The notes: generated by a model from the letters alone, not told the origin. A stretch of 32,000 nt of DNA from Candidatus Saccharimonadota bacterium (GCA_046350815.1 JAXLZO010000001.1:600001-632000), one strand, 5' to 3'. Counted from the first letter of the stretch, positions 6,076-30,635 are shown. Translations and numbers: made by a program.

Positions 6076-6471
6076 ATGACCGATATTACTCACGTACATT
6101 ATCTCGAGCGCAACGATCCTATTTATCGTGTTGCCTTGAATCACCCTGGTGCTGTTTTTGATGAAATATATTTTATACATCTCCTAGAGAATTCTCTTGC
6201 GCTTACGTATTCTGAGAAAAAAGAAGTGATTGATGCGATCCATCGTCTCTCTCAGTACCAGATTGATGAACTCGTTAAAGTATTTCTCGATGAACGTGAG
6301 CAATTCAAGGCTATTATGGAAGAGGAAAGCGAATCAATCATCAAACTCTATGAAGAAGCAAAGAAGAATTGGCTAATGATTATTGAACATTATACCACCG
6401 AAGAGCAGAAGAGTATTCAACAGGAGGTGGATCATGGGAAGCTTGATGAGATACGAAAGGCACTGATGTAA
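6076..6471 (+). CDS. hypothetical protein (131 aa, acidic, helical)
   Basis: Uninterrupted ORF packed tightly between yebC and a terminator. No family recognised. Confidence 0.55.
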   Translation: MTDITHVHYLERNDPIYRVALNHPGAVFDEIYFIHLLENSLALTYSEKKEVIDAIHRLSQYQIDELVKVFLDEREQFKAIMEEESESIIKLYEEAKKNWLMIIEHYTTEEQKSIQQEVDHGKLDEIRKALM

Positions 6472-6480
6472 TATCTATCA

Positions 6481-6510
6481 AATACTGATTTCTAGAAATC
6501 AGTATTTTTT
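6481..6510 (+). terminator. rho-independent terminator
   Basis: aatactgatt-tctaga-aatcagtatt followed by tttt. Confidence 0.7.
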
Positions 6511-6586
6511 GTTCGCTTCAGTGATTTGCTTTTTTGACTTTCTGCTTCTCAATCGTAGTATGGGGAAGATATACTTTTCTGAAATT

Positions 6587-9655
<3,069 letters not shown>

Positions 9656-9767: not shown

Positions 9768-10388
9768 ATGAAATATTTTCTGTTACTTATGAGCTCTTTT
9801 TTTCTTGTAGCTCCTATCACAACATTTGCATCCACTTCAACCAAAGAGCTTCGCATTGTAGATCACCAAGTGTATCTTTTTGAAAATGGTATTCAGTGAA
9901 AAAAACTTACTACGAGAGGAAATGTAGATATTATTAATGGTCTTTTCCAAGGCTATGAAGATATTTGGGAAAAATGTGAGAAGGATTATACACTGAATCC
10001 AAGAGCATGTGATATTATTGGTTATGAAATTCTTTTTCAAGATTCCAATATTGCACTTGTACATAAAATTTATCATCCATCTGAGGCTGATGGAGCACTC
10101 CATACCTTATTTATTTTGAATACTCAAAAAATGAGTTTGGAAGATATCACAAAAAAAGTGCGTATTATTCAGGATGTTAACAGCGATTTTTCAAGCGATA
10201 GTACATGAAATATATATCATCAAAAAACGTATACAACGGTTAACGAAAATTATGGTGAATATCTAAGTAAGTTTCAGAAGCGAAAATTAACAAGATATGG
10301 ATATGTTTTTTATAAAGAAGAATCAGAGGGGTATGTAACATATCGAAAGTTAATAAATATTGAGCAACTTAAAAAGCTCATCAAATAA
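9768..10388 (+). CDS. secreted hypothetical protein, paralog 1 (206 aa)
   Basis: MKYFLLLMSSFFLVAPITTFASTSTKELRIVDHQVYLFENG... has a signal peptide. There are 2 in-frame TGA and a TAA stop. The N-terminal region is shared with the next gene. Confidence 0.6.
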
Positions 10389-10409: not shown

Positions 10410-11114
10410 ATGAGATATATTTCATTCGCAATTGCAACAATATTTCTTGCAATTCCCGTAACTCTCTTTGCATCCACCCCAACTAAAGAACTTCGTATCA
10501 TTGATTATCAGTTGTATCTTTTTGATGGAAATAAAAAGATACAACTTACAACCACATGAAATGCGGATATTATCGAATGAGCATTATGAGAAAAATTATC
10601 AGGGTATGAATCAGGTTATTCTAAGGATGAATGTGGTGTCAAAGTTTCGATGGATAAATGTTTAGCGATTTGATATTGAATACTGTTTCAAAACAAAGAT
10701 ATTGCAATAGTAAAAAGACGTGATTATTTTTCTCAAACAGACAGAACTAATATTATCGTTCTTGCAGTTAATTTTCATAATCGGGAACCGGTACTTCAGG
10801 ATATTACATATCTTCTCCCTTTACATAATATTTGAATATTAATTGATCAAAGTAGTGCTATAGATTACAGATATTCTCGTTTATTTGCTGATAAAAATGG
10901 TAATCTTGTTCATACATTAAAAAATAGTATTAAGGAAAATGGAAACGTCTTTGACTACGATCTTGATCTTTGGTATATTGATGCAGAAGGAAGAGAAGAT
11001 TTGAAATATCATGGATACAAAGAGAGAAAATTTTGAGCTGATATTGTAGTAAATCACAAAAAGATATCGCTTGAAAAACTAAAAAACTTTGCCTGAATTC
11101 CTCTTATGTACTAA
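10410..11114 (+). CDS. secreted hypothetical protein, paralog 2 (234 aa)
   Basis: MRYISFAIATIFLAIPVTLFASTPTKELRIIDYQLYLFDGN... There are about 8 in-frame TGA. Under table 25 the final TGA at 11094 is read through to TAA at 11112. Confidence 0.55.
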
Positions 11115-12646: not shown

Positions 12647-12789
12647 ATTTCGAAAATGTGATTTAATTAAGGGGTATCAACGTAGTTTGGAAGTTTCACT
12701 TTATCAAACTGTGAATTCGAGTTAGTGGAATAAGTATCTTTTACATACCCAGATGATGGACCATATATGGTACCATTTCCTGATGAGTA

Positions 12790-13700
12790 ATCTTGAAAAT
12801 TAAATGCACCCCCACCAATACTTGTAACACTATTCGGAATGGTCACTGAAGTGAGTCGATTTCCCTGAAATGCACCACCACCAATACTCGTCACACTGTT
12901 TGGAATCGTCACTGAAGTGAGTTGGTTGGACGAAAATGCAGAATTACCAATACTCATTACACTGTTTGGAATCGTCACTGAAGTGAATTGGTTGGACGAA
13001 AATGCAGAATTACCAATACTCATTACACTGTTTGGAATCGTCACTGATGTGAGTTGATTGGAATAAAATGCAACCTCACCAATACTCGTCACACTGTTTG
13101 GAATCGTCACCGAAGTGAGTTGGTTGTTCCTGAATGCACCGACACCAATATTCGTCACACTGTTTGGAATCGTCACCGAAGTGAGTTGATTATATGCAAA
13201 TGCAAACTCACTAATATATGTCACACTACTTGGAATGCTCACTGAGGTGAGTTGGTTGGAAGAAAATGCAGAATTACCAATACTCGTCACACTGTTTGGA
13301 ATCGTCACCGAAGTGAGTTGGTTGGAAGAAAATGCAGCCTCACCAATACTCGTCACACTGTTTGGAATCGTCACCGAAGTGAGTTGGTTGGAAGAAAATG
13401 CACCAACACTAATATATGTCACACTACTTGGAATGCTCACTGAAGTGAGTTGGTTGGAAGAAAATATACTACCGCCAATATACGTCAAACTATTTGGAAT
13501 AGTCACCGAAGTGAGTTGGTTGGAAGAAAATGCGCTGCCACCAATATATGTCAAACTATTTCAAAGAGTCAGGGAAGTGAGTTGGTTGTTCCGGAATGCA
13601 CCGACACCAATATACGTCACACTGTTTGGAATCGTCACCGAAGTGAGTTGATTGGACCAAAATGCACCCTGACCAATATATGTCAAACTATTTCAAAGAG
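12790..13700 (-). repeat. near-identical 66-bp (22-aa) tandem repeats encoding BspA-type leucine-rich repeats
   Basis: The unit [22 protein letters not shown] repeats. By manual count there are 18 LRR units in total, extending to about 13990, and the units in this interval are the most similar at the DNA level. Confidence 0.85.
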
Positions 13701-15959
13701 TCAGGGAAGTGAGTTGATTGTATTGGAATGCTCCATTATCAATGGTAATTACACTATTTGGAATAACAATGGAAGTAAGACGATTAAAGGTAAGTGGGGC
13801 ATATTGATTGCCCGCAAATGCAGAGTATCCAATAGTGATAACATTTTCAGGAATAGTCACTGATGTCAGCTGATTCCCAATGAATGCACTATTCCCAATA
13901 GCAAGAATACTATCTGGCATCATAACAGATGTCAAAAGTTTTGAAGCGAATGCCAAATTGCCAATGCTAGTAACATCTTGATTCCAAATTTTGGATGGTA
14001 TGACTACATCTTTTGTACAAGAGTTGCTATAATTCGTAATTGTGCCATTTGAGAAGCTAAAACATGAATAAGCATCTACTATCCATTGAGAGTTATTTCC
14101 ATTGAAGTTGATTTCAACCACTTTTCTCTCTTCAGTTTGTGCTACTTGAGTCTTGTACTCCACCTGATCTCCATTACTAATATTTGCAGATGTTACCCAA
14201 GCTCCTCAATTCACTCGAAACTCAGCACCACTGACACTGAGTGGTACAGGAGTAGAGATATTACTTGCTGTGACGATATTTGAAATAATGTCTGTGCCGA
14301 GAGCAGCATTAGTGATATTGAGTGGCATCGTGAGAGATGGTGGTCCATAAGAAGAAGTGATATTCCACGAGCTTATCTGTCCACCAAAATTAATACTAAT
14401 AGCCATACTAGCATTATAACGATTGATCTGTGTTTTATACTCGATTTGATCTCCATTGTTAATATGAGCACCGGTAACCCAAGTTCCTCCATTGACTCGA
14501 AATTCAACGCTGGGCATTGGTAGTGAAATGTTTGTTCCACCTATACCAGAAAAAAAGAGATAAACAGGCGTTGAGACATCACTTGCTGTGACAATATTTG
14601 AGATAATATCCGTGTTGATAGGAGCGTTCGTTATGTTCGTAGGGGACATAAGGAATGGCGTTCTAACTACCGCACTCACAATATCAGACCACGCACTTAC
14701 TACACCATATGCTTTTGTTGCTCGTATACGATAATAATAAGTAGCACCCCCCATCAATCAATTATGTGAATACTGTCGAGTTCCTCCTCCATCAGAGAAA
14801 TCTCAAAGATTCATGAAATTCACTCCATCCGTGGAATACTCAATATCAAATCAGGATTGCCCATCGGTAATAGCATCCCAAGAAAGAGTGATGCTATTTG
14901 ATATAATTCATGATGCGCTGACATTGGTTGGTACAACTGGTAACGTATCTGGTGCTGTGCATTGTGGTATCGAGTATTCACCTGAACCATCTGTATTCAT
15001 CCCACGTACTTTATAACAATAATATGCGCCATTAGTAAGTCCAGTATGCGTATATCCTGTCCCGGTGATACCAGAAACTTCTGTATAGCTTCCACCATCT
15101 ACATTCCATGCAAGAGTGTATGTATTTGCATTGTCTGCACTATTCCACGTCATAGAAACCTGGCTATCCGTAGGAGTAAGGGTGAGTCATGTTGGAGTAC
15201 TTGGTAAGACAGGTGGCGCATTTACACCCTCCATTCCTAAGATCCTCAACTCTCCAACTGTGTATGGTCACACAATAGATACACTCTCACATCCAAATAC
15301 CTGCACACTTCCAAGAGCTCAATCAGCTTCACAATTACTTATGTGATTTCCTTCAGAAACAACTATATTTGGAAAACCATTCCCTCCTTCCATCAAAATA
15401 ATTTGCTGCCCCTGAAAAAAGAGAATACTATCAATTTGTTTTCCATCTAAATCAGTTGGAGTAAGATCTCAGGCGGTAATAGTAGCAATATACGAAGCAT
15501 AGGGTCCAGATGCAAAACCAGGACCAACGTATCCATACATGGGTTGTCCAAGGAGTGTATACTCTCCCATAGTCAATACATACCCATCATTCCCTGATCA
15601 TCCCCCATCCCCACTTCCCGTACCACTTCAGTTGCTTCCGGTTCCACTATTGATCACTCTCAAAGCATCCTCACCGAAGCTTCCATCCTTCAGAGAAAGA
15701 AGAGATCAAGTAGAGATATCTGTAGATACATATTCATCAGCTCACTGTGATCACACTATGATATCAAGCGTACTTGCATCACTCAAAGAGATATCTCTAC
15801 TTCCTGTACCAGTCACTCCATTCTGAAGAGGTTGATTACTTCCTTTACTCACAAAGATACCAAGTCTATCTCCTGCAGAGTAGGGATATCTCGAAGAGAG
15901 ATCAGTAGTACTGCTATCGAGAGCATAAGCAGTATCGAAGGCGTGCGCCTTCGATACAA

Positions 15960-16013
15960 GGAGTGAATCTGATACGAAGAGTGAATCTGACGAAAAGAAT
16001 GAATCTGATGCGA
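15960..16013 (-). repeat. three 18-bp tandem repeats inside the surface-protein gene
   Basis: gagtgaatctgatacgaa / gagtgaatctgacgaaaa / gaatgaatctgatgcgaa, encoding FASDSFFSSDSLFVSDSL. Confidence 0.7.
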
Positions 16014-16330
16014 AGAGAGTATCAGGAAGAGTGGATGGAAGAGATTGCTTTGCAATCTCAATACTCCTCTCAAACCTTGGATTCTCAAGGTATGCCATGA
16101 ACTGAGCGCTATCGTAGTGTTGATTGACTCTGTAGGTATAAGGTGTTCCATCTAAAGGATCATAGATTTTATCTGATCCATACCCGAGAGGATTCACCAA
16201 AGCAAGACTCATGAATCCTTGGTATCCAATGAATGATCCACTCACACTAAGAGAGACACTATCTGCTATAGGTGTAGGAAGCTTTCGAAGTTGTGCACTC
16301 GTAATCCTTGCACTCTCTGACAATGTCTTA

Positions 16331-17083
16331 GGGTCTAAACCAGTTGACAGGATAAATTATCCCATAAACTTGGCTCTATGATCAGTAAAACTACCTATAG
16401 GAAAAAATCACGAATTTGAGATGCAAAAATAAGAGAAATTGTGAAATATTTTTCTCTGGATTTTACTTCAGATAAAACAGCGGTATTAACAGGTCTCAAT
16501 CCAAAAACAACACAGGATTGGTATAGATATATCAGAAAGGCGATAGCCTTTCTCTGTGAGAGAGAAAAGAATGAAATATGGACTGGAAATGTTGAGATAG
16601 ATGAGAGTTACTTCTGACCAACAAGAGTCCGATGAAAGAGAGGAAGGTGAGCTGGTATGAAGACAATAGTCTTTGGTTTACTCAAAAGAAACTGAAAAGT
16701 ATATACTGAGATAGTTCCTGATGTAAAAGCAAGGACTCTCGTGCCAATCATTCGATGAAAACTTCGTATAGAAGAGTCTGAGATTAACAGTGATGGATGG
16801 TGAGCTTATGATGGGCTTGTAGATATTGGATATGAGAAACACTACCGTGTTCATCACGGAGCAAATGAATTTGCAAGATGAACTCAACACATTAATTGAA
16901 TAGAGTCATTTTGGAGTTATACCAAAAGAAGACTCTCTCAATTCAATGGAATCAAGAAAGTCTACTTCTACTATTTTTTGAAAGAATCTGAATTCAGATA
17001 TAATTGTCGTATTCAATGAAAAGATATTTATAAGGAAGTGCTAAAGTTACTTCGTCAATATAACCCGTAACTGGTTTAGACCC
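16331..17083 (+). mobile_element. IS1595-family (IS1016-like) insertion sequence, copy A, 753 bp
   Basis: 15-bp perfect terminal inverted repeats GGGTCTAAACCAGTT. Flanked by the direct repeat TGTCTTA (16324-16330 and 17084-17090). As far as compared by eye, it is identical to the inverted copy at 24886..25638. Confidence 0.9.
16378..17070 (+). CDS. IS1595-family (ISXO2-like DDE) transposase, 230 aa
   Basis: MISKTTYRKKSRI[G]DAKIREIVKYF...NVEIDESYF[G]PTRVR[G]KRGR[G]AGMKTIVFGLLKRN[G]KVYTEIVPDV...INSDGW[G]AYDGLVDIGYEKHYRVHHGANEFAR[G]TQHIN[G]IESFWSYTKRRL. There are 10 in-frame TGA and a TAA stop. Confidence 0.9.
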
Positions 17084-17290
17084 TGTCTTAATATCACTAA
17101 TTCTCTTTCCATCTCTTGCTACTGATGACTGATGACTCATCACCACAAACCCTATCACGGATAGTATAGAGAGTATGGTAATCACTACTATGAGTTCTGT
17201 GAGGGTGAAGGCAGAGTGGTTACTGAAAGAAGAAGGGGATGATTTCAAAGAAATCATCTTAAGAGAATGACTGCGTGAAAAAAGAGACAT
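17084..17290 (-). pseudogene. 5' portion of the IS-disrupted surface protein, carrying the type IV pilin-like class III signal
   Basis: MSLFSRSHSLKMISLKSSPSSFSNHSA|FTLTELIVVITILSILSVIGFVVM...RISDIKT then runs into the IS. Phe+1 and Glu+5 are present. An alternative start is ATG 17255-17257. Confidence 0.7.
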
Positions 17291-17351
17291 AGAAACATAA
17301 GTAAAAATTCTGCTTAGTATTACATCATACTTTGAAACAAAATACAAAAAC

Positions 17352-17369
17352 ACACACGGTCTCGTGTGT
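17352..17369 (-). terminator. candidate terminator hairpin downstream of the 17562..18428 gene
   Basis: acacacg-gtct-cgtgtgt, with a T-run on the minus strand (aaaaa on the plus strand at 17346-17350). Confidence 0.35.
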
Positions 17370-17561
17370 ATTTTGAGTGGATGAGTTTTGGATTTATGGT
17401 GTTGTATATTTTAAAAAAGAGGGAATGATAGATTCATAGTTCATTAGACTTATACGATTCACCCGACTAATGAAGCTTGCTCTCCTCGTTGAGGAAGAAG
17501 GCATGGTGCAAGTAGGGGGATTTTATATTCCTTCTTATTTATGAAATTAAGAGTCTATCTT

Positions 17562-18428
17562 CTACTTCCCAATCTTCACGAGTAACATAAATATGCTTTG
17601 TTGGTTCTCATAATTCCCAAGTAGGAGGCTGCGTGCTTCACGTACTTCATCGTGATTGATACTAGAGCGATGGCGTTTTTCCCCGAATATTTCGCTCTCG
17701 TTAAGTCTAACAAGTTTCTTTCTGAGGGGTTCTGAGAGAAGATTTTTTTCGAGAGATTCATTTCATTTGATCCAATCAGCGAATATTTGTGTATAAGGGA
17801 GAAGGGTGACTCCGTTCTCACGATGGTCTCGAATCCGTGAGAGGAGTGGTGTGAGTCTCCCTATGGAGAGAGTATAATTTTTGGTAACCATGGCTATGAG
17901 TGCTCGCTCAAGTGGATCATTGAATTTTGGCGGGACTTCTCATCGGAGTCGATCACGTGCGTATTTGACAAAAGACTTGGTGATAATTTCATGGATGAGA
18001 CAATCATATGCCTTGGTAAGTACTGATATAATAGGGAGTCCATCATTAAATCCTCGTTCCGTCGTCAGAATATAGTAGAGCCGCTCTGCCTCGATAAGAT
18101 AAGCAAAGAATTGGTGTGGGAGAGTATCAAGGTAGGAGCCAAAATATTCTCGAATGAGATTGACTGCTACTCATTGTGTATCTTGGTCTCAACTATTGGA
18201 GGCAAATACTTCGTTGAGTGCTTGGATAGTGCTCTTGGTGGCAAGTTTTGTTTGAATTTCTTTGGTTCGTGTCTGTACCTCTCTCTCCATCCATCGACGA
18301 GCTTCCGCCAACATATGTTCGAGGACTGTGATGCGTTCAAGCAAAATTTCATTGTCTTTTTGCAACTTCAAAAACTCCTCATTTTGAGGGCTTGTGGAGT
18401 CTTTGAGCGGTTGTTTTGATCAAGTCAT
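17562..18428 (-). CDS. hypothetical protein (288 aa) with N-terminal coiled coil
   Basis: The frame of ORF 18189..18371 extends through TGA codons (18420, 18189, 18171, 17940, about 17757) from ATG 18426-18428 to TAG 17562. The table-11 ORF 17576..17821 is in a different frame and was rejected. Confidence 0.55.
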
Positions 18429-18531
18429 AGATATTCTTGGATGAATTCTAACCTATCTTTTCATTTTGAGCAAATTTTCGTTCATAATTGTGAAGTAGCA
18501 AACTTTTGATACAATAGGAGAAATTCTCCCT

Positions 18532-19953
18532 ATGTACCAAGATCGATCGATTTTTACGGCAATTATGGCGTATGCGCGCCCGAGATCAGAGAGACATTCA
18601 TTCGAAGAGATACTCTCTCAATCTGGGATTAACCTCTCAGATATTGATATGACGCTTCCAGAGAATATTCTTGCTCTGGACTCTGAATATTTTCATCTTC
18701 TTTTTGATAAGGATAACTCGAGTGATCGAGAGGCAATGAAGGCAATATTTGATCTCGAACATGAGCTCGCGCCAGTGCTCGCACGTATGGAAGCAGGTGG
18801 AGTATTCCTAGATCGTTCCTTACTCGATACGGAGTCAGTCAATCTTCGTCGAAGAATAGAAGATCTCAAGAAGACGATATTTTTCTCTGCATGAGAAGAA
18901 TTTAACATCTCGTCTTCAAAACAACTCCAAATTATCCTCTTCGAGAAACTCTGACTCCAATCAGGCAAGAAAAACAAGACTGGCTATTCTGTGGATGCTG
19001 AGGTATTGGAATTCCTCCAAGACAAACATCCTATTATCTTGCCTCTTCTTGAGTACCGTACGCTAACGAAATTGCAGACAACCTACTTTGATGTGCTCCC
19101 ACGAAGCATCTCTCCTCGGACCAATCGTATTCATCCAACCTATATTCAGATCGGTGCAGCGACGGGGCGTATTGCATGTGAAGACCCGAACTTACAGAAT
19201 ATTCCAGCACATGGTGAAGGAAGTGAGATTTTACGTCGAGCATTTCGACCGGAAGATTCGCACACGGTCTATGTGGTGGCAGATTTCTCTCAAATGGAAC
19301 TCAAGATTCTTGCAAATCTCTCCGGTGATCAGGCTTTTCAGGATGCATTTCTTGCATGAGGTGATATTCATCAGAGGACAGCAGAGTTTCTCTTTGGTCA
19401 TACGAATATATCATGAGATGAGCGTCGTATTGCAAAGGCGGTGAATTTTGGTGTTATCTATGGTGTATCAGGTTTTGGCCTGATGAAGACAACAGGGCTA
19501 TCACGCAAAGATGCGGATAGCTTCATCAAGGCATTCTATGATGCTTATCCTGGTGTGTGAAGTTATTATGAGAGGTTACTTGAATGAGTTCGCACCAAAT
19601 GATATGCAGAGACATTCCTCGGTCGTAGACGCTGGATCGATGGGATCAATGACTCCAATAAGATGCTACGAAGTGCTGCTGAGCGAGAAGCGATGAATAT
19701 GCCCATTCAGGGAACAGGGGCAGATGTTCTGAAACTTTCACTCATCAAGGCGGATCGGTTGATTCGAGAGCTCTTTGATGAAGTAAAAATGGTGATGAAT
19801 ATTCATGATGAGATCGTCTTTGAGGTTCCACGATTCCAGGCGGATGCTTTCTGTGAGAAACTCCAAGAGACTCTTGCTTATACTGAACTTGGCCCGATCG
19901 CTCTCAATGTGGATATTGGAGTAGGGGAGAATTGGTGGGAGGCGAAACAATAA
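18532..19953 (+). CDS. polA: DNA polymerase I, polymerase domain only (473 aa)
   Basis: ORFs 18532..18894, 18991..19359 and 19663..19953 are in frame. Motif A VADFSQMELKILA, motif B RRIAKAVNFGVIYG, motif C NIHDEIVFEV. TAG at 18496 closes the frame upstream, so this gene has no 5'-nuclease domain and only a stub of the 3'-5' exonuclease domain. Confidence 0.9.
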
Positions 19954-19978
19954 TACGCATTATTTTTTTAAGAATTCT

Positions 19979-20593
19979 ATGTCTCACAAAAAGATGCTGC
20001 TTCGTGTTGTGACCTCCCCTTCTGAGATTATATGTACTTCATATGTGATACTTCGCTTTATCGTGCAAATTAGAGGGATATATGGCTCGATAACCTCTCA
20101 TCTAATGAGTTTCCTACTCATGATCATCCACTCAATCGCGATATTATTCTTTGGATTGAGCGATATTTTTCTGGGAATTTTGACTATCTCTCAGAGCTTT
20201 CATATCATTTGAATAGCACTCCATTGAGTCAAAAGGTGCTCCTAACACTTGTTGCGACATATTCTGGAGAGATACTTTCCTGTCGTGAGCTTGCTGAACG
20301 GTCTGGATGCCATCGGGTCGGATCAGTCATGGTAAAATCTTATTCCTCCCTTTATCCCATGCTATCGAGTGATGCGATCGGATGGGTCGATCGGTCAGTA
20401 TAGCTGTGGAATAGAACGTAAAAAATGGCCTTTAGAGCGTGAAACAAAATTTTCTAGTAGAACTTTATTTCCGGTTAAATATCTATGTATACGACCTCTC
20501 ATTTTATCTGAATTTCACTTTACTCGAAATATTTCGCGGATATTTTTTCTTGAATTCAGAACATATTATGACCTGACTGCTCATCGATTATAG
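19979..20593 (+). pseudogene. ogt: methylated-DNA--protein-cysteine methyltransferase (Ogt/MGMT) relic with two compensating frameshifts
   Basis: The N-terminus lies in the frame of ATG 19979. The middle (WIERYFSGNFD...TPLSQKVLLTLVATYSGEILSCRELAERSG) is shifted by -1 near 20075-20090. The C-terminus (NLIPPFIPCYRVMRSDGSIGQYSCGIERKKWPLERE) returns to the first frame at the A-run 20334-20337. Homology ends near 20445, and the tail to the 20593 stop overlaps thpR. Confidence 0.6.
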
Positions 20594-21054
20594 AGCTTCA
20601 AAATCCTCTTTCTCTTCATATAACAATTTTCTATCTTCCCAGTAAGATTTCTCCTCAGGATAAGGAAGTGATTCACAAAATTTTATGACAAATATGAGAA
20701 GTAAAATTGGATTTCAGCATTTCAAATATGAAATATTTTTGAGAATGAGAGAATCTGAGGGTTGGGTATATTGGAATACAAAATGATATTCAGTTGCGAA
20801 CGTTTCATGCCTCATGCAAGAATTTATTTCCTCAGTACATGGATATACCTGATAATGCATACCCAATCTTTATACCTCATATTACACTTTTTCGTGTCAA
20901 AAATATACCTGCTTTTCTAGAAAAGAAATGAGTAATTGAGCAGTTTATTGCTCACGAGTTGGTAAGTGTACAAAATATTAATCTCGCAGAAAGCTGACGG
21001 TTATTTGCTGTAAATTCTAGATTTACACCTGAATTACAGATGATCATTTCCTAG
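20485..21054 (+). CDS. thpR: RNA 2',3'-cyclic phosphodiesterase / 2'-5' RNA ligase (2H phosphoesterase)
   Basis: Manual table-25 translation gives 189 aa with both H-x-T-x motifs (LSLHITIFYL and FIPHITLFRV). There are several in-frame TGA and a TAG stop at 21052. The gene is absent from the table-11 ORF track. Confidence 0.7.
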
Positions 21055-21069
21055 AATATCAAGCTCTCA

Positions 21070-21414
21070 TTATCCCACTTTCTTTACAAATTCTGATTTT
21101 AATCACATTGCACCGAACCCATCTATTTTGCAGTCAATATTATGATCTCCATCTGTGAGTCTAATATTTTTAATTTTTGTCCCTGCTTTGATAGGCTGTG
21201 AAGCTCCCTTTACAGGTAAGTTTTTAATTGTGATAACTGTGTCACCATTTTGTAGTGCAACTCCATTTGAATCTTTGATAATAAGAGCCTCCGAATCACT
21301 CTTTGGGGCCTCAGATACTGAACTCCATTCATGAAAACAATCTGGGCAGATAAAACTGTATTCAAGTTCATATACGTTTTCTCATCTACATTCTGGGCAT
21401 TGAGGATATTTCAT
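21070..21414 (-). CDS. yjdM: zinc-ribbon protein PhnA/YjdM
   Basis: MKYPQCPECR[G]ENVYELEYSFICPDCFHEW...[26 protein letters not shown][G][10 protein letters not shown] is near-colinear with E. coli YjdM (...[35 protein letters not shown]). Confidence 0.85.
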
Positions 21415-21489
21415 ATAATAGGTATTAATAAAAATCTATACTTCTTAATCGCTCCACTTTACCACTTCGAATCCTTTCTCTCAAAATAT

Positions 21490-24273
21490 TCAGGCGTGTG
21501 TGATCCCAGAGATACTCACATCTGCTTGCTCTCCTTCGAGGAGTGAGCGTGCTGCTGATCGTAGATCATCGAGGGTCACATCGAGAAGATGACTCCGTAT
21601 GATGGATTTTTCTTCAAGTGATTCTCCGAGGAGCGTGAGCCGGAGTGACTGAAGCGTCTCCGTAAGAGGGGTGAGTGGTTTGTCGATCGCAGAGATGCAT
21701 CCAAGCAGTGCTCCAAAAAGGAGATCTTCACTGAGTCGTGATCCATCGGCGATCATAGTGAGTCCACGATCAAAGTCTTCATAAGTCTCCATGAGTCGTG
21801 GGTCACGGTATGAGAAGGTTCGAAATACGCCTGTCTCTCGATCGTAGTTTGCCCCTCCTCCATAGGCTCCGCCTTGTTCACGAATGAGGGTGTGAAGTGC
21901 TGCATCTCTGAGATACTGTGCAAGAATAAGATGAATAGCATCATCTTTGAGACTACGAGTGCGATCACTCAGATAGGCACGAGAGTGATAGGAGACGAGA
22001 CTCTCAAAGAGATAAGCTTTTTTACGATGAGACTTTTGGAGTGATTGAGAGTTGAGGGTATGTGTATCAATTGGTTTGAGCACCGTTGCTTTACCATTAT
22101 CATCATGGTTTGTAATTTGTACCGTATCGAATGATATTTTTGAGAGGGATTCAAGTTGTGTTTTTACGAGATTCAAAGTCTTATCAATATGGTTTTTTTC
22201 GCTGAGCAATTGTATTTGCTTCAGGGCATTCACTCATGAGATCGATGCTACGAGTGATCCATATTCTGAGAGGAGTGCAGTGGACTCCATCATGGCAAAT
22301 TTTTGCCCTGATCCTATGATCTCAGCATCCAGCCCTGAACTAATTTCTCCGAGGAGCGTTTCGAGCCGAGTAGTATCACAATGACTCGTTTGGTTAATTT
22401 CGTAGAGGAGGGGGATGATATCTTGAGTATATCGCTCGAGATGGCGGGCGGTTGTTGTGATAAGTGCGCGATAACCACTCTTGTCGGATTTGAGGCTGAG
22501 TTGTTGAGAGATGCCTCCAGTCATGGTTTGTATATCTTTTCAGAGTTTGATATAGTCTCGATTTTTCGTGGAGATTTGTCAGAGGAGCTTGAGTGTGAGA
22601 CTTATACCAAAGAGATCATTGCCATTATATAACCCAAATAGCTGCGTACGATTGACTCATTGGGTGATGGTATTTATGCTGAATCCTGACGCGGTTTCTC
22701 GGATATCGAGCTTCGGTGGTGTAATATTTCTTGGGATATCCTCTCGCGCGATAATTGGCAAACAATCGAGAGACTCTTGAGATTCTTGTAGAGATTTTAG
22801 TCGTGCTGATTGCTCAATAATTTTCTCTTTGTCCTGAGCTGTGAAGCTTGCTTCAGCTGATTCTATAAAATCTCTTTCCCTCTTGGTTTCTCTCTGGTTC
22901 ATGAGCGCATCAGGAGTATGGATATTCGTGACCTGATGTGGTTGATTGATCCAGATTTTTCCGAGAAGATCTCAGAAATAATTTTGATCCTGTACTCTTG
23001 TACGGAGTCGAATAAGAGCATCCGAAAGATCGAGATGATCACTTGGATTCCCCTCATGCATGACCGCCCCCATGATTGTGAGAGCGTATTCCAGCCCGAG
23101 GGGATAGCTTGAGTTATTTGGTCGATCTTGGAGTTGAAGCTCAAGTTGATCGATGATAGCACTGTATTCTTGAGCTTCTGGTTTCCAGTTTTGAATAGAT
23201 TGTTGCCATCTTTGAAAATCCACACGAGTTTTCTCGAGGGTATCTCAGCTCGTAATCCATCCAATAGTATAGCGAACTTCTCTTCCGCTGTCGTCTATTC
23301 CCATGAGAGGCGATGGACTTTTGATATCTTTTGATTCCTCTATCCATTTCGTGAGTGGTGATCATGCATGTGCTGTAAGAAGTGCATGAAAAACCTGAAG
23401 ATCGAGAAATTCATCAACATGTGTTACACGATCGAGAAGTGTAGAAATATGCACATAACACTCAGCATCATCGCTTCCTGGATAGTGACGATAGTTAGTT
23501 TCTTGGCTTGCAAGTCTCTTTTCATCTCTTGGAGCTACTTTATATCCATATTGAAACTCTCGCAGCACTCTTGATTCAATATGCGCTTGTATTTCAGGAG
23601 CTGGAATGTTTCCAAAGGTGATAAAAGTCGCATTGGTTGGATGATAGTGTAGCTCATGAAAATGTTTAAAATCCTCATAGGTAAGTTCAGGAATATCACG
23701 AGGATTACCTCCCGAGTCATGATGATAGGTTGTCACAGGGTGAAGTGAGCTCTTGATATCTTCATAGATTCGTTCAACTACATTACCATAGACGCCTTTC
23801 ATCTCATTATAGACAACTCATTTGATCGTGAGTACGTCTTCATCATATTCAAATCGATGCCCTTCTTGAGCAAAAGAGAGTGGATCGAGCTTTGGGAAGA
23901 ATACTGCATCGAGATAGACATCGAGGAGTCCAAAATAATCTTTTTTATTCTGTGTCGCAAATGGATATGCTGTCCAATCAGAGCTCGTAAAAGCATTCAT
24001 AAATGTTTGAAGCGATCGTTTGAGCATCGAGAAAAATGGATCTCTTACTGGAAAAGAGCGCGATCCACAGAGTGCTGTATGTTCGAGAATATGAGCAACT
24101 CCCGTCGAGTCTTCTGGGAGCGTCCGCAGCGCAACGAGAAACATATTCTCATCACTCGCACTCTCAAGATGAATATGACGAGCTTCAGTAATGCTATGCT
24201 TATAGATATGAAGGGTGAGATGGAGAGAATCAATATGATTGGAGGAGAGAAGTTGAAAATTGTTTTTGAGCAT
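21490..24273 (-). CDS. M16C family zinc metallopeptidase (PreP / pitrilysin-like), 927 aa
   Basis: Six table-11 ORFs (21490.., 22234.., 22657.., 22972.., 23362.., 23818..) share one frame. Inverted zinc motif HILEH, and TIK[G]VVYNEMKG. Start MLKNNFQLL at ATG 24271-24273. Confidence 0.85.
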
Positions 24274-24532
24274 GAGAAATGGAAAAATGAATTCAATAGT
24301 AGTATATGAAAAAATGTGGATAATGAAAAATCCTCTCACATTTTTGTGAAAGGATTTTTTGTCTGATTTCCTTTATGTTTCGGAATTTTCTGAGAGAGAA
24401 GAATATTGTTTTAACGGATGAATTCGATAATATTTATATTCATATCACTGTCCTGTATGTACTTAATTGACATAGTATAAAAATATCAAAAAATTTACTT
24501 TGTTTACATCAAAAATTGAAAAGGAGAATGTC

Positions 24533-24865
24533 ATGAACAAAACAGTTGAGTATCCATATGAGGGTGGGTATCCGGAGGATCAAGGGGGTTTTAAAGTTTG
24601 GTTTTGGATAGTAATGATCTTGTTGTATATACCATTGTTATCTTTGATACTCCAAGAAAAAATCCTGTTTCACTGGGGTTATATTATTGGGATCTATCCA
24701 ATTGGCGTGCTCGTTTGGTTGTTGGGATATTTTGCAGATTATAAGGATATGTTATTTTCTGCTAGTGAAGAACAACGAGATGTACTCTTGGAAAAATCCA
24801 AACAATATTTCCAATTTGCCTTCAAAAGAGCAGTGAAATGGTTCATGTTTCTCTTGGGAAAATAA
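24533..24865 (+). CDS. small membrane protein, hypothetical (110 aa)
   Basis: aaggag RBS upstream of ATG 24533. Two hydrophobic helices; TAA stop. Confidence 0.55.
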   Translation: MNKTVEYPYEGGYPEDQGGFKVWFWIVMILLYIPLLSLILQEKILFHWGYIIGIYPIGVLVWLLGYFADYKDMLFSASEEQRDVLLEKSKQYFQFAFKRAVKWFMFLLGK

Positions 24866-24885
24866 CCAGATTGCGAAATATTAAA

Positions 24886-25638
24886 GGGTCTAAACCAGTT
24901 ACGGGTTATATTGACGAAGTAACTTTAGCACTTCCTTATAAATATCTTTTCATTGAATACGACAATTATATCTGAATTCAGATTCTTTCAAAAAATAGTA
25001 GAAGTAGACTTTCTTGATTCCATTGAATTGAGAGAGTCTTCTTTTGGTATAACTCCAAAATGACTCTATTCAATTAATGTGTTGAGTTCATCTTGCAAAT
25101 TCATTTGCTCCGTGATGAACACGGTAGTGTTTCTCATATCCAATATCTACAAGCCCATCATAAGCTCACCATCCATCACTGTTAATCTCAGACTCTTCTA
25201 TACGAAGTTTTCATCGAATGATTGGCACGAGAGTCCTTGCTTTTACATCAGGAACTATCTCAGTATATACTTTTCAGTTTCTTTTGAGTAAACCAAAGAC
25301 TATTGTCTTCATACCAGCTCACCTTCCTCTCTTTCATCGGACTCTTGTTGGTCAGAAGTAACTCTCATCTATCTCAACATTTCCAGTCCATATTTCATTC
25401 TTTTCTCTCTCACAGAGAAAGGCTATCGCCTTTCTGATATATCTATACCAATCCTGTGTTGTTTTTGGATTGAGACCTGTTAATACCGCTGTTTTATCTG
25501 AAGTAAAATCCAGAGAAAAATATTTCACAATTTCTCTTATTTTTGCATCTCAAATTCGTGATTTTTTCCTATAGGTAGTTTTACTGATCATAGAGCCAAG
25601 TTTATGGGATAATTTATCCTGTCAACTGGTTTAGACCC
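24886..25638 (-). mobile_element. IS1595-family (IS1016-like) insertion sequence, copy B, inverted relative to copy A
   Basis: Reverse complement of 16331..17083. Flanked by the direct repeat TATTAAA (24879-24885 and 25639-25645). It sits between the stop of the 24533..24865 gene and that gene's terminator hairpin. Confidence 0.9.
24899..25591 (-). CDS. IS1595-family transposase (copy B)
   Basis: Mirror image of 16378..17070; ATG (cat) at 25589-25591 and TAA (tta) at 24899-24901 were checked. Confidence 0.9.
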
Positions 25639-25644
25639 TATTAA

Positions 25645-25699: not shown

Positions 25700-26300
25700 T
25701 TATTGTGTGTGATTGGACGTATATTATTTCCATCCTTGGGTCCAAAACCCTGTTTGCTTTCAAGCCGATTGTAACTAGAGTGTCAAGTGTATACATGACT
25801 CAATATAAATCAACATGGTGTACCGAAAAGCATCACATGCTGTCTATGACTGCAGGTATCACATAGTATGGATTACGAAATATAGAAGAAAATGTCTTAC
25901 GAAACCAATTCAAGAATCAGTACAACGAATCATAGAATGAATCTGCAAAGAACTCTACATCACACCCATTGCTATTGGTATGGAAGAAGATCATATACAT
26001 GTATATCTGAGTATTCCTCTTGTACATCCAATTCCATTTGTAGTCCAAATGTTTAAATGAAGAAGCTCACACCATATATGGACCGATACAATATTTAAGT
26101 CTCATCTAAAAAACTTCTATTGGTGAGAAAAGAAATCTCTCTGGGCAGTGTGATACTTTTGTACAACAGTCTGAGCAGTAGATGGAGATATCATCAAAAA
26201 ATATGTAGAACAACAATGAAAAGAAGATGTCGAAGGTGCAGAAATAGAAATTTAAAGCAAAACAAAAGCCACGGCGCTTTAGACCGTGGCTAGATCGGTT
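25700..26300 (+). mobile_element. IS200/IS605-family element carrying tnpA only (boundaries approximate)
   Basis: Y1 transposase gene plus a subterminal hairpin, agccacgg-cgctttaga-ccgtggct, at about 26270-26294. The ends were not defined and no tnpB is present. Confidence 0.5.
25815..26255 (+). CDS. tnpA: IS200/IS605-family Y1 (HUH) transposase TnpA, 146 aa
   Basis: MVYRKASHAVYDCRYHIVWITKYRRKCL...EEDHIHVYLSIP...MFK[G]RSSHHIW...LWAV[G]YFCTTV[G]AVDGDIIKKYVEQQ. HUH motif (HIH) and catalytic Tyr are present. There are 6 in-frame TGA. Confidence 0.9.
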
Positions 26301-26314
26301 GAGAGATTTTTACT

Positions 26315-26785: not shown

Positions 26786-26814
26786 CCCAGCTTTAAAGGA
26801 AGCTGGGATTTTTA
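26786..26814. terminator. bidirectional terminator between convergent genes; overlaps the speE stop
   Basis: cccagct-ttaaagga-agctggg followed by attttta. Confidence 0.6.
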
Positions 26815-27645
26815 TACGCTCAGAAATTTTGGAAGTACAAAACATGCACTATGGATCTCTGGCGTGTAGTACTTGAGATCGTCGAATTGTCCGGGGTGAT
26901 TGCGAAATCATTGAGTAATCTGAGGAAGCTTTGAACTTATGAAAAATCAAAAACAACCACTATGGTACATAGGAATAAAAGCAAGATATCGATCGACACT
27001 TGCAAAATTCCTCTGAAACATCTGATGCTGTTTCCGATAAAAATCCAAACGACTAAAAGGAGAGTCCCCATAGCTCACGATGAGAGCGTTTGTATTGGTG
27101 ATTGTTTTAATATCTCCAAATATTGTCTCACCATGAAGTTGACCACCAAGTTCTCCATCTTCACTATCATCAGTACTATCAACGAACACGATATCAAAAG
27201 GAGCTCAGCTATATTCTTGTACAAAGATTGTGCCATCCTGATGGACGAGTGTTGACCGAACATTATTGAATCCGGATGCAACTTGAGGAAAATATTTGCG
27301 AGCAACTTCTGTAACGACTGGATCAATATCACAGGTGACAACTTCTTCTATGCTTTCATATCTGAGAAGTTCTCTCAAACACCCGCCATCTCCACCACCG
27401 AGAATGAGAGCTCGCTTTGGATTCTGATGAGTTTGCATAGCAACATGTACCATCATCTCATGATAGCTCCACTCGTATGCATCACAGAGTTGTATGACAC
27501 CATCGAGGAGGAGTATATTTCCCCAATCCTGATGATGAATAACTTGGAGGTGTTGAAAATTGGATTTTATATCGAGGAGTATCTCTGTATCAGAGAGTAT
27601 GAGTGTGCTCTTGTGACAATATTCACCCTCTTTATGGTCGTACAT
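26812..27645 (-). CDS. speE: spermidine synthase (polyamine aminopropyltransferase)
   Basis: ORFs 27205..27645 and 26947..27189 are in frame and extend through TGA codons (27205, 26947, 26908) to TAA at 26812. Features: LLLDGVIQLCDAYEWSYHEMMVH, ILGGGDGGCLRELL, FDIVFVDSTDD, and a C-terminal KYYTPEIHSACFVLPKF. Confidence 0.9.
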
Positions 27646-27651
27646 AGTTGA

Positions 27652-28032
27652 TTATTTATGAGCTATCATTGATCGATGGATCGTTTGAAGTTTTTGCTCT
27701 TGTGATTGGAATATTTCCATAAGTTTCTTATAGAGGTTCTCCGCTTTGGATGAATTATCTTGGCTCTGATTGCAGACAAATACGTCGATCGATACATACC
27801 CAAACTCCGGCCACGTGTGGATAGATACGTGTGATTCCGCAAGGGCAAATACTGCAGTAAATGATGCTCATCAGAATAGATGTATATGTTCACCGAGTCG
27901 ATTGAGTCACTCATCGTCAATCATACTGCCAAATATATTGATAATACCGTCTCGTGTGATAGTCGCAAAATCCTCAAAAGAGCATTCGTAGAGATCTCCA
28001 ATAATATGAATTCCAGTTTTTCCTAGTAGCAT
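27652..28032 (-). CDS. speH: S-adenosylmethionine decarboxylase proenzyme (small, class 1)
   Basis: [17 protein letters not shown]...F[G][G][32 protein letters not shown] carries the ES|H self-cleavage motif. It ends 6 nt upstream of the speE start. Confidence 0.85.
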
Positions 28033-28175
28033 GGTATGGTTTGTTTTGAGAATGGGGGAATTATAGAAAAAAAGATGAAAAATAAAATGTTCACAAGAAA
28101 ACTCTTTCTGAAAAGATTTTTTTGAGCTTTTATCAGAACTCACTACACTCTCAGTATTATTTATTGCACTTTAAT

Positions 28176-28886
28176 ATGCTTACTCGCAATATCTGTGATA
28201 TTGTCGTCTTCCATACGCCTCTTGATGTGAATAGTGCTATATCCGAGCGAACCAAGATCGTGAGAGAAATGGTGGATGGTTATCTCTCTGGAATGGGAGT
28301 ATCTTGGAATACTCATGAGAACATAACTCCCACAACACAGACAATCATATCAGAGTTTCAGGGTACTATTTTCACTATGAGTTTTTCTTCATCAGTCGGA
28401 TTGATACCGTCAATTCGAGCGAGTCTTATGCCGAGTTCACAACTCTCCAAAGCAATTGTAGAAAATTTTCTCTCTGACATTGTTCGCATTTTTCGTGGAC
28501 AATTTTTTGAGAGATATTTTCTCGAATATGATCCAATCTATCATCTCGATGAGATGAATATGGGAAAAAAATATGATCTTGATGATATTGCTTGATGCGA
28601 TATACGATCAGCGTCTCATGATGAAATCGTCCGTCTGCTCGATGCTATTTATTTTCTCCATTTTCGTCTCGTTCGAGAACTTTCTCGTTCGCTTGATAGC
28701 GAGGAAAATATAAGTACACTTCTCGGAATTTCACTCTCGAGTGATCTTGTCCTCGGGCTTCAAACATCATGAGTGAGGATTGGAGAGATACAACAATCAC
28801 TCATCTCACAGATTGCGCAAGTGCGCGCCCAAATAGAACTTTTTAATTCTTTGCTTCCATCGCTATGATACTCGATCCATTCGTAG
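28176..28886 (+). CDS. hypothetical protein (236 aa), first gene of the operon divergent from speH
   Basis: ATG 28176. The frame continues through TGA at 28596, 28770 and 28866 to TAG at 28884. It overlaps the next gene by 22 nt. Confidence 0.5.
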
Positions 28887-29317: not shown

Positions 29318-29392
29318 GCATTCTTCTGAGATATGGCATCATTACATAATGAAAATAATACAAAAGACGGTGTAGGGCAATTGGGAAGATTT

Positions 29393-30634: not shown

Positions 30635-30635
30635 T

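Follow-up and report, generated by a model that had tools for sequence, protein, structure and literature searches.

Organization of the interrupted gene

We analysed a window of 32,000 nucleotides, in which a gene on the minus strand, interrupted by an insertion sequence (IS), extends from position 17290 to 12667. When the element and one copy of its target duplication are taken out, the repaired frame consists of 3864 nt, corresponding to 1287 amino acids and a stop codon, with zero other stops or frameshifts. The features of the locus are as follows.

12667-17290, minus strand: whole interrupted gene; 1287 codons plus a stop at 12667-12669 after removal of 16330-17089, with UGA read as Gly
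17210-17290, minus strand: leader peptide, residues 1-27 (MSLFSRSHSLKMISLKSSPSSFSNHSA), basic, with Ala at -1
17085-17209, minus strand: N-terminal part of the mature protein, encoded upstream of the IS and ending at the second base of codon 69, with F28 (+1), E32 (+5), the hydrophobic helix FTLTELIVVITILSILSVIGFVV and the first part of alpha1-C (N_methyl, TIGR02532)
16330-17084, plus strand: IS1595-family insertion sequence of 755 bp, with 16-bp perfect terminal inverted repeats, a transposase and an empty site in contig L089
16378-17070, plus strand: DDE transposase of the IS, 230 aa
16325-16329 and 17085-17089: copies 1 and 2 of the target-site duplication GTCTT, 5 bp, flanking both IS ends
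16081-16329, minus strand: rest of the pilin-like core, residues 68-150, with the end of alpha1 and four beta strands predicted from the AlphaFold model of paralogue P0003
15904-16080, minus strand: variable low-complexity insert, residues 151-209, differing in length among paralogues and predicted to be disordered in P0003
15952-16017, minus strand: SD-rich 6-aa repeats, residues 172-193, inside the variable insert
15646-15903, minus strand: second conserved subdomain of the N-terminal module, residues 210-295, conserved family-wide and beta-rich in the P0003 model
15586-15645, minus strand: Gly/Ser-rich linker, residues 296-315
15205-15585, minus strand: middle domain, residues 316-442 (GYVLTMGEY...), of no curated family, common to P0001, P0002, P0013 and P0140
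14665-15204, minus strand: two fibronectin type III (FN3) domains, residues ~443-531 and 532-622, from Pfam
14065-14649, minus strand: two copies of a ~90-100-aa repeat domain of no curated family, residues 628-734 and 735-822
12775-14007, minus strand: 18 BspA-type leucine-rich repeat (LRR) units, residues 842-1252, of the LRR_5 type, encoded by a 66-nt tandem DNA repeat
12670-12774, minus strand: conserved C-terminal cap, residues 1253-1287 (...KLPNYVDTP), common to LRR_5-type paralogues and modelled with high confidence in P0001

The protein thus comprises, in order, a class III signal, an N-terminal module of ~270 residues, a Gly/Ser linker, an unnamed middle domain, two FN3 domains, two unnamed repeats, an 18-unit BspA-type LRR solenoid and a conserved cap. 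Among the family copies found, the window copy has the greatest length and the most LRR units. Under translation table 11 the frame is interrupted at TGA; under table 25 it is continuous and contains 16 in-frame TGA codons. The reading of UGA as Gly is supported by the relatives, since their codons at the TGA positions of the window gene are GGN in 17 of 34 non-TGA cases and TGG in none.

The leader contains R6, K11 and K16 and leads into ...SNHSA27↓F28TLTE32LIVV..., so that the leader, the residues at -1, +1 and +5 and the hydrophobic segment all have the form of a class III signal. The N_methyl model (PF07963) matched residues 23-46 with 23.4 bits (cut-off, 21.2), and TIGR02532 scored 23.4 (cut-off, 16.3). 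Of 101 family members, 60 have Ala at -1, 33 have Gly and 8 have TGA-coded Gly; Phe at +1 is invariant, giving the motif [A/G]↓FTLxE.

The fold of the N-terminal module was modelled on residues 1-295 of P0003, a paralogue that shares 94% identity across the first 141 residues of the mature protein, using an 89-sequence alignment (pLDDT 77.5, pTM 0.69). The model predicts a 50-residue helix (15-64) and strands at 76-81, 84-91, 117-121 and 127-133, with block-mean pLDDT values of 89-96. The family profile matched solved structures of Geobacter PilA-N (5e-13), PpdD, MshA, S. sanguinis PilE1, PilA and GspG, and nearly all alignments with these pilins and pseudopilins began at mature Phe1. A Foldseek search of the P0003 module against the PDB returned zero significant matches; the assignment of a pilin fold therefore draws on the secondary-structure topology of the paralogue model and the sequence homology of alpha1, by which the module looks pilin-like. 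No named major or minor pilin was matched at the equivalog level (GspG, 14.8 bits with a cut-off of 88.85; ComGC, 14.9 with 75; PpdD, 15.9 with 138), and these models matched only the common N-terminal helix.

In the central part of the protein, fn3 (PF00041) matched two stretches with 50.3 bits (cut-off, 25), and sequence matches to FN3 domains in the PDB, including those of RPTP-delta and titin, reached 1e-9. The two unnamed repeats aligned with a score of 250, compared with 31 +/- 6 for shuffled sequences. Two repeats of ~90 aa had been proposed here; both are present, but they are of unequal length (107 and 88 aa) because of a 12-aa insert in the first. This domain was also found elsewhere in large proteins, in tandem arrays of up to 26 copies.

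The LRR_5 model (PF13306) matched the C-terminal region with 338 bits over 18 units, compared with 5-10 units in relatives. The first unit is irregular, one has 30 aa, and the other 16 have 22 aa. Foldseek with the model of paralogue P0001 identified the LRR_5 surface proteins 4fs7, 4fd0, PcpA and TpLRR (4cp6 and 6mlx among the matches), with E-values of 1e-5 to 3e-8. The adhesin models HupY/LrrG matched the LRR region partially, with 234 bits against an equivalog cut-off of 1250, and the Gli349 equivalog gave 138 bits against 1750. Characterised BspA-type LRR proteins are adhesins.

These results agree with the original prediction on most points of architecture: a single minus-strand frame of about 1288 codons once the IS is removed (now 1287 codons and a stop, from 17290 to 12667), a class III signal with a small residue at -1, Phe at +1, Glu at +5 and a hydrophobic helix (the leader now being fixed at 27 residues), a region of SD-rich 6-aa repeats (residues 172-193), two FN3-like modules, recovered by both Pfam and PDB sequence matches, and 18 BspA/LRR_5-type units, predominantly of 22 aa.

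Insertion of an IS1595-family element

The open reading frame of the IS matched DDE_Tnp_IS1595 (PF12762) with 95 bits, and its terminal inverted repeats are perfect over 16 bp (AGGGTCTAAACCAGTT). A second copy lies at 24885-25639 in the window, flanked by the duplication TTAAT and identical to the first at 755 of 755 bases, which indicates recent transposition. The element thus has the transposase and inverted repeats of an IS1595 member, each copy is flanked by a 5-bp duplication, and relatives have unoccupied sites. Duplications in the IS1595 family are usually ~8 bp, and the 5 bp observed here are atypical.

The metagenome contig L089, which is syntenic with the window and 85-90% identical in nucleotide sequence at the flanks, joins window position 16329 to 17085 with a single AAGAC and thus carries the empty site. 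The peptide across the junction (..RISDIKT/LSESARIT..) is identical in P0001, P0003, P0010, P0029 and others, and every relative is uninterrupted there. Because the two fragments are contiguous in all relatives and the syntenic contig has an empty site, they belong to one gene. As far as tested, none of the findings that the original prediction had set against itself was made: the contiguity of the fragments holds, and the N_methyl, fn3 and LRR_5 models all score above threshold.

We also considered whether the IS had been misplaced by mis-joining of repeats during assembly, so that the fragments derive from different paralogues. The N-terminal 125 nt are near-identical among paralogues, and short-read contigs end there. 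However, a perfect 5-bp duplication flanks both ends of the element, the frame is exactly restored by its removal, the empty site in L089 is flanked by matching neighbours (RumA and, at the opposite end, the upstream spacer), and an independent contig, L092, matches the window at 100% identity over 17174-24912. An assembly artefact is thus extremely improbable.

The IS entered codon 69, within the alpha1 helix, and cut off the signal and anchor from all the rest of the protein. The fragment downstream of the IS has 1218 codons and no signal peptide. The gene is a pseudogene in the window genome, and the protein cannot be made there. The positional counterpart in L089 has decayed by many frameshifts, and the copy in L088 is disrupted too; the broken state of all three copies suggests that the locus may be dispensable. 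The original prediction pointed to a host-recognition determinant, but since the gene is a pseudogene and its syntenic counterpart is frameshifted, it is not a working one here.

The insertion could instead be an on/off switch at the population level, with intact alleles coexisting and contingency-type variation of the adhesin repertoire. The identity of the two IS copies, the existence of closely related contigs (95-99% identical) without IS copy 2, the lesion-free remainder of the gene, the identity of its middle part in at least six sequencing runs and the breakage of other family copies by different means are all compatible with such a switch. However, the searches found no contig in which exactly this gene is intact, and none on record carries a chimeric N-terminal product; moreover, precise excision is not known for IS1595 elements. 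We therefore regard such switching as improbable.

Relation to modular pilins and the Gracilibacteria family

Our preferred reading, which we consider probable at roughly 0.6, is that the locus encodes a modular type IV pilin-like surface protein from an uncultured Gracilibacteria bacterium in which UGA encodes Gly, and that an IS1595-family element inactivated the gene recently. Genes for such proteins make up a Gracilibacteria family that includes this one; their products have one N-terminal module in common and differ in their C-terminal modules (LRR_5, other LRR types, RCC1, LamG and fibrinogen-like). Conservation of alpha1, over all its 50 residues, and of the sheet that follows it extends across more than 700 family members. 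Members carry the NCBI/JGI names GspG, PulG or prepilin-type domain proteins; intact paralogues are present in NCBI, one named leucine-rich repeat protein and another prepilin-type domain protein.

The family genes are dispersed singly, outside pilus operons. Within the 32-kb window, no pilB, pilC, pilD, pilM-Q or prepilin peptidase gene was found. In the relative L001, two tandem pilin-LRR genes have a PilT/PilU-family ATPase gene (406 bits; cut-off, 319) at a distance of 3.6 kb. PilB, PilC, PilD and PilT are encoded in Gracilibacteria genomes together with many large "GspG" proteins (Sieber et al. 2019, PMC6851277), and Gracilibacteria express type IV pili (PMC11452946). The "GspG/PulG-like" proteins of the former study are alike in phylum and annotation. 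That study remarks on their unusual size, but their average of 528 aa is less than half the length of the window protein, and PMC6851277 does not describe their C-terminal modules.

The combination of a pilin leader with BspA-type LRRs had been regarded as unusual. It is not so in kind, since such fusions were catalogued by Raynaud et al. in 2021 (PMC8179133), where the prepilin motif IPR012902 with the BspA-type LRR IPR026906 is the seventh most common modular-pilin architecture (18 + 6 + 3 + 2 proteins). Modular pilins are defined by IPR012902 and at least one domain not specific to type IV pilus biology, and the window protein combines N_methyl with two fn3 domains and LRR_5. Thus, the gene is a large example of a published type and not a new kind of system. 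Like S. sanguinis PilB (vWA) and PilC (lectin), the encoded protein has a class III signal, an N-terminal pilin-like module as putative carrier, a linker and C-terminal non-pilus effector domains; the catalogue also includes LRR_5, FN3, LamG, fibrinogen-like and RCC1 modules, and examples from the candidate phyla radiation are prominent in it (PMC8179133).

The differences are in size and order. The window protein has 1287 aa (1260 mature), whereas the modular pilins cited in the 2021 survey reach at most 860 aa, and the order N_methyl, unnamed domain, two FN3, two unnamed repeats and 18 LRR_5 units is absent from its list (PMC8179133). Its pilin-like module, which includes a disordered insert and a second subdomain, is unusually large at ~270 aa, and this copy is a pseudogene. 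A bulky binding domain proposed for the tip is also a feature of the tip minor pilins and adhesins (ETEC CofB, V. cholerae TcpB and GspK; the non-pilin PilY1/PilC; PMC8179133), but the window protein has no sequence or HMM similarity to these, and no partner minor-pilin genes lie nearby.

The 22-aa repeat type is shared with the BspA-type LRR surface proteins, which include Tannerella BspA, pneumococcal PcpA, T. pallidum TpLRR, HupY/LrrG and Bacteroides 4fs7 and 4fd0. Those proteins are anchored via lipoprotein, choline-binding, sortase or T9SS signals, whereas the anchor of the window protein is a prepilin-type N-terminus.

Proposed display and binding of the intact form

In its intact form, the protein would be cut by prepilin peptidase after Ala27 and methylated at Phe28. 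The type IV filament machinery would then pull the hydrophobic helix from the membrane and set the pilin module in a filament, most likely at its tip, since the filament body has no room for an appendage of 1000 residues. A stalk would be formed by the middle, FN3 and repeat domains; the LRR solenoid could use its concave face to bind a ligand carried by a host or prey cell, and PilT retraction could draw the two cells together.

Alternatively, the protein may have been displayed without a pilus, the class III signal serving for export and anchoring, with the stalk and LRR projecting from the envelope on a tethering helix or a very short pseudopilus. The archaeal bindosome, whose sugar-binding proteins carry class III signals, provides a precedent. 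Its substrates likewise combine a prepilin-type signal with a large binding protein encoded outside pilus operons; this is an analogy only, and in contrast to them the family of the window protein conserves a full pilin-like alpha1 and sheet. Display of this kind is consistent with the orphan position of the family genes, the very large appendage, the lack of matches to named minor-pilin families and the presence of the NCBIfam model of the bindosome ATPase BasE among weak matches. However, the conservation of alpha1 and the sheet in more than 700 members is more in keeping with an assembly interface than with simple anchoring, and S. sanguinis builds modular pilins that carry bulky modules into its pili (PMC8179133). 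We therefore consider pilus-free display unlikely, while noting that the two modes of display are not fully mutually exclusive.

Even if the protein is displayed on a pilus as proposed, its LRR module may not bind host cells. It could instead serve for self-aggregation, for attachment to the envelope of the organism itself or to capture soluble proteins. No single ligand defines the LRR_5 domains, and the 2021 survey places IPR026906 among modules with "no clear function" (PMC8179133). Nevertheless, siblings carry LamG, fibrinogen-like, RCC1 or other LRR modules at the equivalent position, which fits diversified recognition of external ligands, and the BspA-type LRR proteins characterised so far, as represented by HupY/LrrG in NCBIfam, act in adhesion. 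A role unrelated to host cells thus appears quite improbable.

For the family as a whole, Gracilibacteria may have a "swappable-tip" pilin repertoire, which we consider less likely than not, in which a conserved carrier and stalk would present interchangeable heads (BspA-LRR, other LRRs, RCC1 propeller, LamG and fibrinogen-like). Expansion of copies, or their switching off by IS insertion and frameshifts, would then set and vary attachment to the host or prey. If the intact form is truly built into a filament, it would exceed in size every pilin subunit described so far.

An insertion element within a single gene

Under table 11, the minus-strand frame 12667-16356 is interrupted at TGA codons, and under table 25 it is open over 1229 codons. 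Joining 17290-17090 to 16329-12667, which deletes the inserted element and one copy of GTCTT, gave a single frame of 1287 codons plus a stop, with no further lesions besides the insertion. The original observation of one frame upon removal of the element and one duplication copy was exact. There are 16 in-frame TGA codons in the repaired gene, and the codons aligned with them in six related genes were GGN in 17 of the 34 non-TGA cases and TGG in none (0/34), indicating that UGA encodes glycine in the window; table 4, in which UGA encodes tryptophan, was ruled out on the same grounds. UGA is also read as glycine in Gracilibacteria and Absconditabacteria.

Insertion features in the window
16330-17084: IS1595-family element, copy 1; 755 bp, with perfect 16-bp terminal inverted repeats, AGGGTCTAAACCAGTT
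16325-16329 and 17085-17089: direct repeat GTCTT flanking copy 1; 5-bp target duplication
24885-25639: copy 2, inverted relative to copy 1; flanks TTAAT

The 230-codon ORF of the element matched DDE_Tnp_IS1595 (95 bits), and the two copies were identical at 755/755 bases. The IS1595 family usually makes target duplications of about 8 bp, whereas the window copies carry 5-bp duplications (GTCTT and TTAAT) and are only 755 bp long. An IS200/IS605-type Y1 transposase gene (25815-26255) adjoins copy 2; the 580-bp segment that holds it, 25730-26309, is missing from the related contigs L095 and L096, where 25729 joins 26310.

Without the element, the junction would be ...ATTAAGAC-ATTGTC... at the DNA level. 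Every relative recovered reads through the junction: the database proteins P0001, P0003, P0010, P0029, P0110 and others share ...VARDGKRISDIKTLSESARITSAQLR.... The JGI metagenome contig L089 has the gene order of the window (YebC, LeuRS with a NUDIX insert, two small genes, RumA and the pilin-like gene), with flanks of 85-90% nucleotide identity. It provides a natural empty site, in which window position 16329 directly joins 17085 and AAGAC, which is GTCTT in reverse complement, occurs only once, and this proves the insertion and its 5-bp duplication. The two fragments are thus one gene, as its relatives are contiguous across the junction and the site is empty in a syntenic locus. An assembly artefact was a lesser alternative for the split; however, window 17174-24912 is matched at 100% identity by an independent contig, L092, which speaks against a chimeric assembly, and the artefact was rejected in view of the duplicated target, the empty site and the frame that the deletion restores. 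The middle part of this exact gene also occurs, identical, in short contigs from at least 6 sequencing runs.

The element lies at codon 69, within α1. What lies upstream codes for the signal plus 41 mature residues before IS sequence begins, and the downstream fragment comprises 1218 codons without a signal; judged from this sequence, the gene is non-functional as assembled. The identity of the IS copies, the otherwise undamaged gene and the absence of copy 2 from 95-99% identical contigs point to a recent insertion. These contigs, L095 and L096, lack both copy 2 and the neighbouring IS200-type element, and the absence of copy 2 indicates that the IS1595-family element was active recently. Population-level on/off variation by insertion is a lesser alternative to simple loss; a look-up of the chimeric pilin-IS read-through product, a sign of the broken allele in other samples, found nothing on record.

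Several other window genes have features of their own. In the LeuRS gene (6434-9655, plus strand), a NUDIX hydrolase domain (PF00293, 53 bits) has been inserted just behind the CP1 editing domain, and L089 (6615-9749) keeps the insertion. The two tandem small-protein genes (9768-10388 and 10410-11114, plus strand) form a pair conserved in L089; their products have similar, signal-peptide-like N-termini (MKYFLLLMSS... and MRYISFAIAT...) and both contain ...TKELRI.D.Q.YLF..., and a Pfam scan of the first gave no match. The DNA polymerase I homologue (18532-19953, plus strand) is only 473 aa long and apparently lacks the 5'-3' exonuclease region, leaving just the polymerase domain; DNA_pol_A matches were also found in L092. 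A polyamine-related cluster (26812-31832) includes, by inspection of the sequence, a candidate spermidine synthase and S-adenosylmethionine decarboxylase, followed by a DUF350 membrane protein and a protein of 433 aa whose tail is Ser/Gly-rich, and also a glutathionylspermidine-synthase-like protein (PF03738, 73 bits).

Anatomy of the repaired protein and its pilin-like N-terminus

Parts of the repaired protein (residue numbers; gene 17290 to 12667, minus strand)
1-27: basic leader with Ala at its end (sequence)
28 onward: F28 TLT E32 and 23 hydrophobic residues; PF07963, 23.4 bits (cut-off 21.2); TIGR02532, 23.4 bits (cut-off 16.3)
28-150: conserved pilin-like core (family alignment, paralogue model)
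151-209: low-complexity variable insert, including SD-rich hexapeptide repeats at 172-193
210-295: conserved second subdomain (family alignment)
296-315: Gly/Ser linker (sequence)
316-442: middle domain without a curated family (no Pfam match)
443-531 and 532-622: two FN3 domains (Pfam, 50 bits; PDB sequence matches to RPTP-delta and titin FN3)
628-734 and 735-822: two copies of an unnamed repeat (alignment score 250 vs 31 +/- 6 for shuffles)
842-1252: 18 BspA-type LRR units (LRR_5, 338 bits; a 66-nt tandem repeat at the DNA level)
1253-1287: conserved C-terminal cap, common to LRR_5-type paralogues

A pilin-like N-terminus is supported by an N_methyl score above the cut-off, by a family profile that aligns with solved pilins and by the pilin topology predicted for a paralogue. 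The profile, built from 89 members, matched the solved pilins and pseudopilins Geobacter PilA-N (5e-13, whole α1 covered), PpdD, MshA, S. sanguinis PilE1, PilA, GspG and gonococcal pilin, and nearly all of these matches start at the mature Phe1. Phe+1 is invariant among 101 motif-bearing family proteins, in which the -1 residue is Ala (60), Gly (33) or TGA-coded Gly (8); the last 8 of the 101 appear as W in table 4 translations. The -1 glycine is also TGA-coded in L089 (about 268-276) and in the related contig L088 (about 9940), where AAA TCT TGA TTC ACT reads K S G F T. Because this glycine is coded by TGA, standard-code gene callers clip the signal peptide, and the database proteins P0004, P0110 and P0113 start at 'MSHQSS'.

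The paralogue P0003 stood in for the window protein in structure prediction; the two share 94% identity across the first 141 mature residues. AlphaFold with the 89-sequence alignment modelled P0003 residues 1-295 at pLDDT 77.5 and pTM 0.69, with a 50-residue helix (15-64) and four strands (76-81, 84-91, 117-121 and 127-133), all at block-mean pLDDT 89-96, followed by a disordered insert and a second, beta-rich subdomain. The predicted topology is that of a pilin, a favourable result. In an earlier run on P0001 with a 22-sequence alignment, the N-terminal module remained below pLDDT 50. A Foldseek search with the P0003 N-terminal module model returned no significant PDB neighbours, and the window protein reached none of the equivalog models of named pilins.

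Pfam and PDB searches gave no name to the middle domain or the ~90-aa repeat, and weak matches to picornavirus VP3 in these searches were judged to be chance. The unnamed repeat of about 90-100 aa (window 14065-14649, residues 628-822) is nevertheless a genuine domain. Exhaustive searching recovered it from 334 representative proteins, 70 of them at E <= 1e-10; its tandem arrays reach 26 copies and the proteins 4407 aa, and some of these proteins also have Lcl_C or FG-GAP domains. No credible Pfam match was obtained for it in the window protein or in five scanned repeat-bearing proteins, and it is a candidate new stalk-domain family.

A family with one module and many heads

Of the candidates scored in the profile search for the N-terminal module, 707 proteins reached E <= 1e-5. 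Their named source organisms are Gracilibacteria or Peribacteria throughout, and they are annotated as prepilin-type domain proteins or GspG/PulG. Members of a close subfamily share 60-90% identity in the module; four of them (P0001, P0003, P0005 and P0013) lie on one 1.28-Mb NCBI contig, and tandem pairs occur on the metagenome contigs L001, L010 and L013. The C-termini differ: LRR_5 repeats of 5-10 units are one type, an FN3 domain precedes LRR_8/LRR_14-type repeats in P0003 and P0010, and P0013 combines FN3 with LRR_4. P0140, the top match in the middle-region search, shares the middle domain and FN3 pair of the window gene and then has RCC1 repeats in place of the unnamed repeats and LRR. 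More distant members carry LamG, fibrinogen-like and Lcl_C modules. At 1287 aa, the window gene exceeds every other member found in length: motif-bearing database proteins have at most 753 aa, and metagenome loci reach about 850-917 codons or more. Its LRR unit count is likewise the highest among the members found.

The searches for relatives found no intact orthologue with the identical full architecture. Family patterns had no match in GTDB representative genomes, and a scan of these with the neighbouring RumA gave only a 48%-identical Gracilibacteria MAG, too distant for synteny. The syntenic copy in L089 (1-3500) is shorter than the window gene and has at least 6 frame changes under table 25, beside intact RumA and LeuRS. 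The copy in L088 (9700-12600) is disrupted by reading-frame changes and an extra ~250-nt segment with a duplicated gene piece; the start of its downstream ORF is putatively IS-like. The SD-rich hexapeptide repeats have one unit fewer in the near-identical allele P0029. Judging from these comparisons, family members are evidently gained, expanded and lost quickly.

Proposed presentation of the LRR head

The best-supported reading is that the intact gene encoded a modular type IV pilin. The N-terminal module would serve as the carrier, the middle, FN3 and repeat domains as a stalk, and the LRR solenoid as the binding head. Prepilin peptidase would process the protein and the pilus machinery would present it, most plausibly at the filament tip, since a 1000-residue appendage cannot pack into the shaft. 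To our knowledge, type IV pili are the only attachment organelle proven by experiment in the candidate phyla radiation, the organism being Saccharibacteria. The modular-pilin reading has one main rival, display without a pilus in a bindosome-like or membrane-tethered form. The other window genes, which include FtsH, YebC, LeuRS, RumA, a PolA fragment, an M16 peptidase and polyamine genes, contain no pilus genes, and no second class III signal motif was found within the 32 kb. Indirect support for pilus machinery comes from relatives. On L001, a tandem pair of pilin-LRR genes has a gene for a PilT/PilU-family ATPase (406 bits, cut-off 319) 3.6 kb upstream. A closed Gracilibacteria genome has genes for PilB, PilC, PilD and two PilT together with multiple unusually large GspG-like proteins (PMC6851277), and groundwater Gracilibacteria express type IV pili (PMC11452946). 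The remaining loci of the family are orphans.

Modular pilins were defined by Raynaud et al. (2021), who catalogued 1219 proteins in 264 architectures (PMC8179133). Their IPR012902-IPR026906 architecture, in which IPR026906 is the BspA-type LRR region, comprises 18 proteins, with two copies in 6 further entries, three in 3 and an extra domain in 2, and FN3, LamG, fibrinogen-like and RCC1 modules are also listed (PMC8179133). The claim that the combination is unusual in kind therefore did not hold, as prepilin and BspA-LRR fusions were already listed; the window protein is of the same kind, although its exact combination is unlisted and it is larger than the largest modular pilin mentioned, of 860 residues (PMC8179133). 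Intact family members are already public, with both domains recognised there. The original interpretation, a pilus-tip adhesin presenting an LRR binding surface, is partly supported: the architecture, the homology and the disruption are established, while we infer processing, assembly, tip location and ligand for the intact form; a ligand other than a host is a lesser alternative. The gene is best described as an unusually large, disrupted example of published modular pilins, adding no principle beyond that concept.

The family bears on the question of how ultrasmall, host-dependent bacteria within the candidate phyla radiation recognize their hosts. The broken window copy mainly illustrates a repertoire in flux: an IS was active recently, the LRR array has expanded, and the same locus has decayed in a relative. 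The more interesting lead is the combination of one carrier module, many heads and frequent inactivation. Intact paralogues such as P0001 and P0003 offer material for expression, localisation and binding screens, and the binding modules carried by Gracilibacteria pilins are concrete candidate determinants of host specificity.
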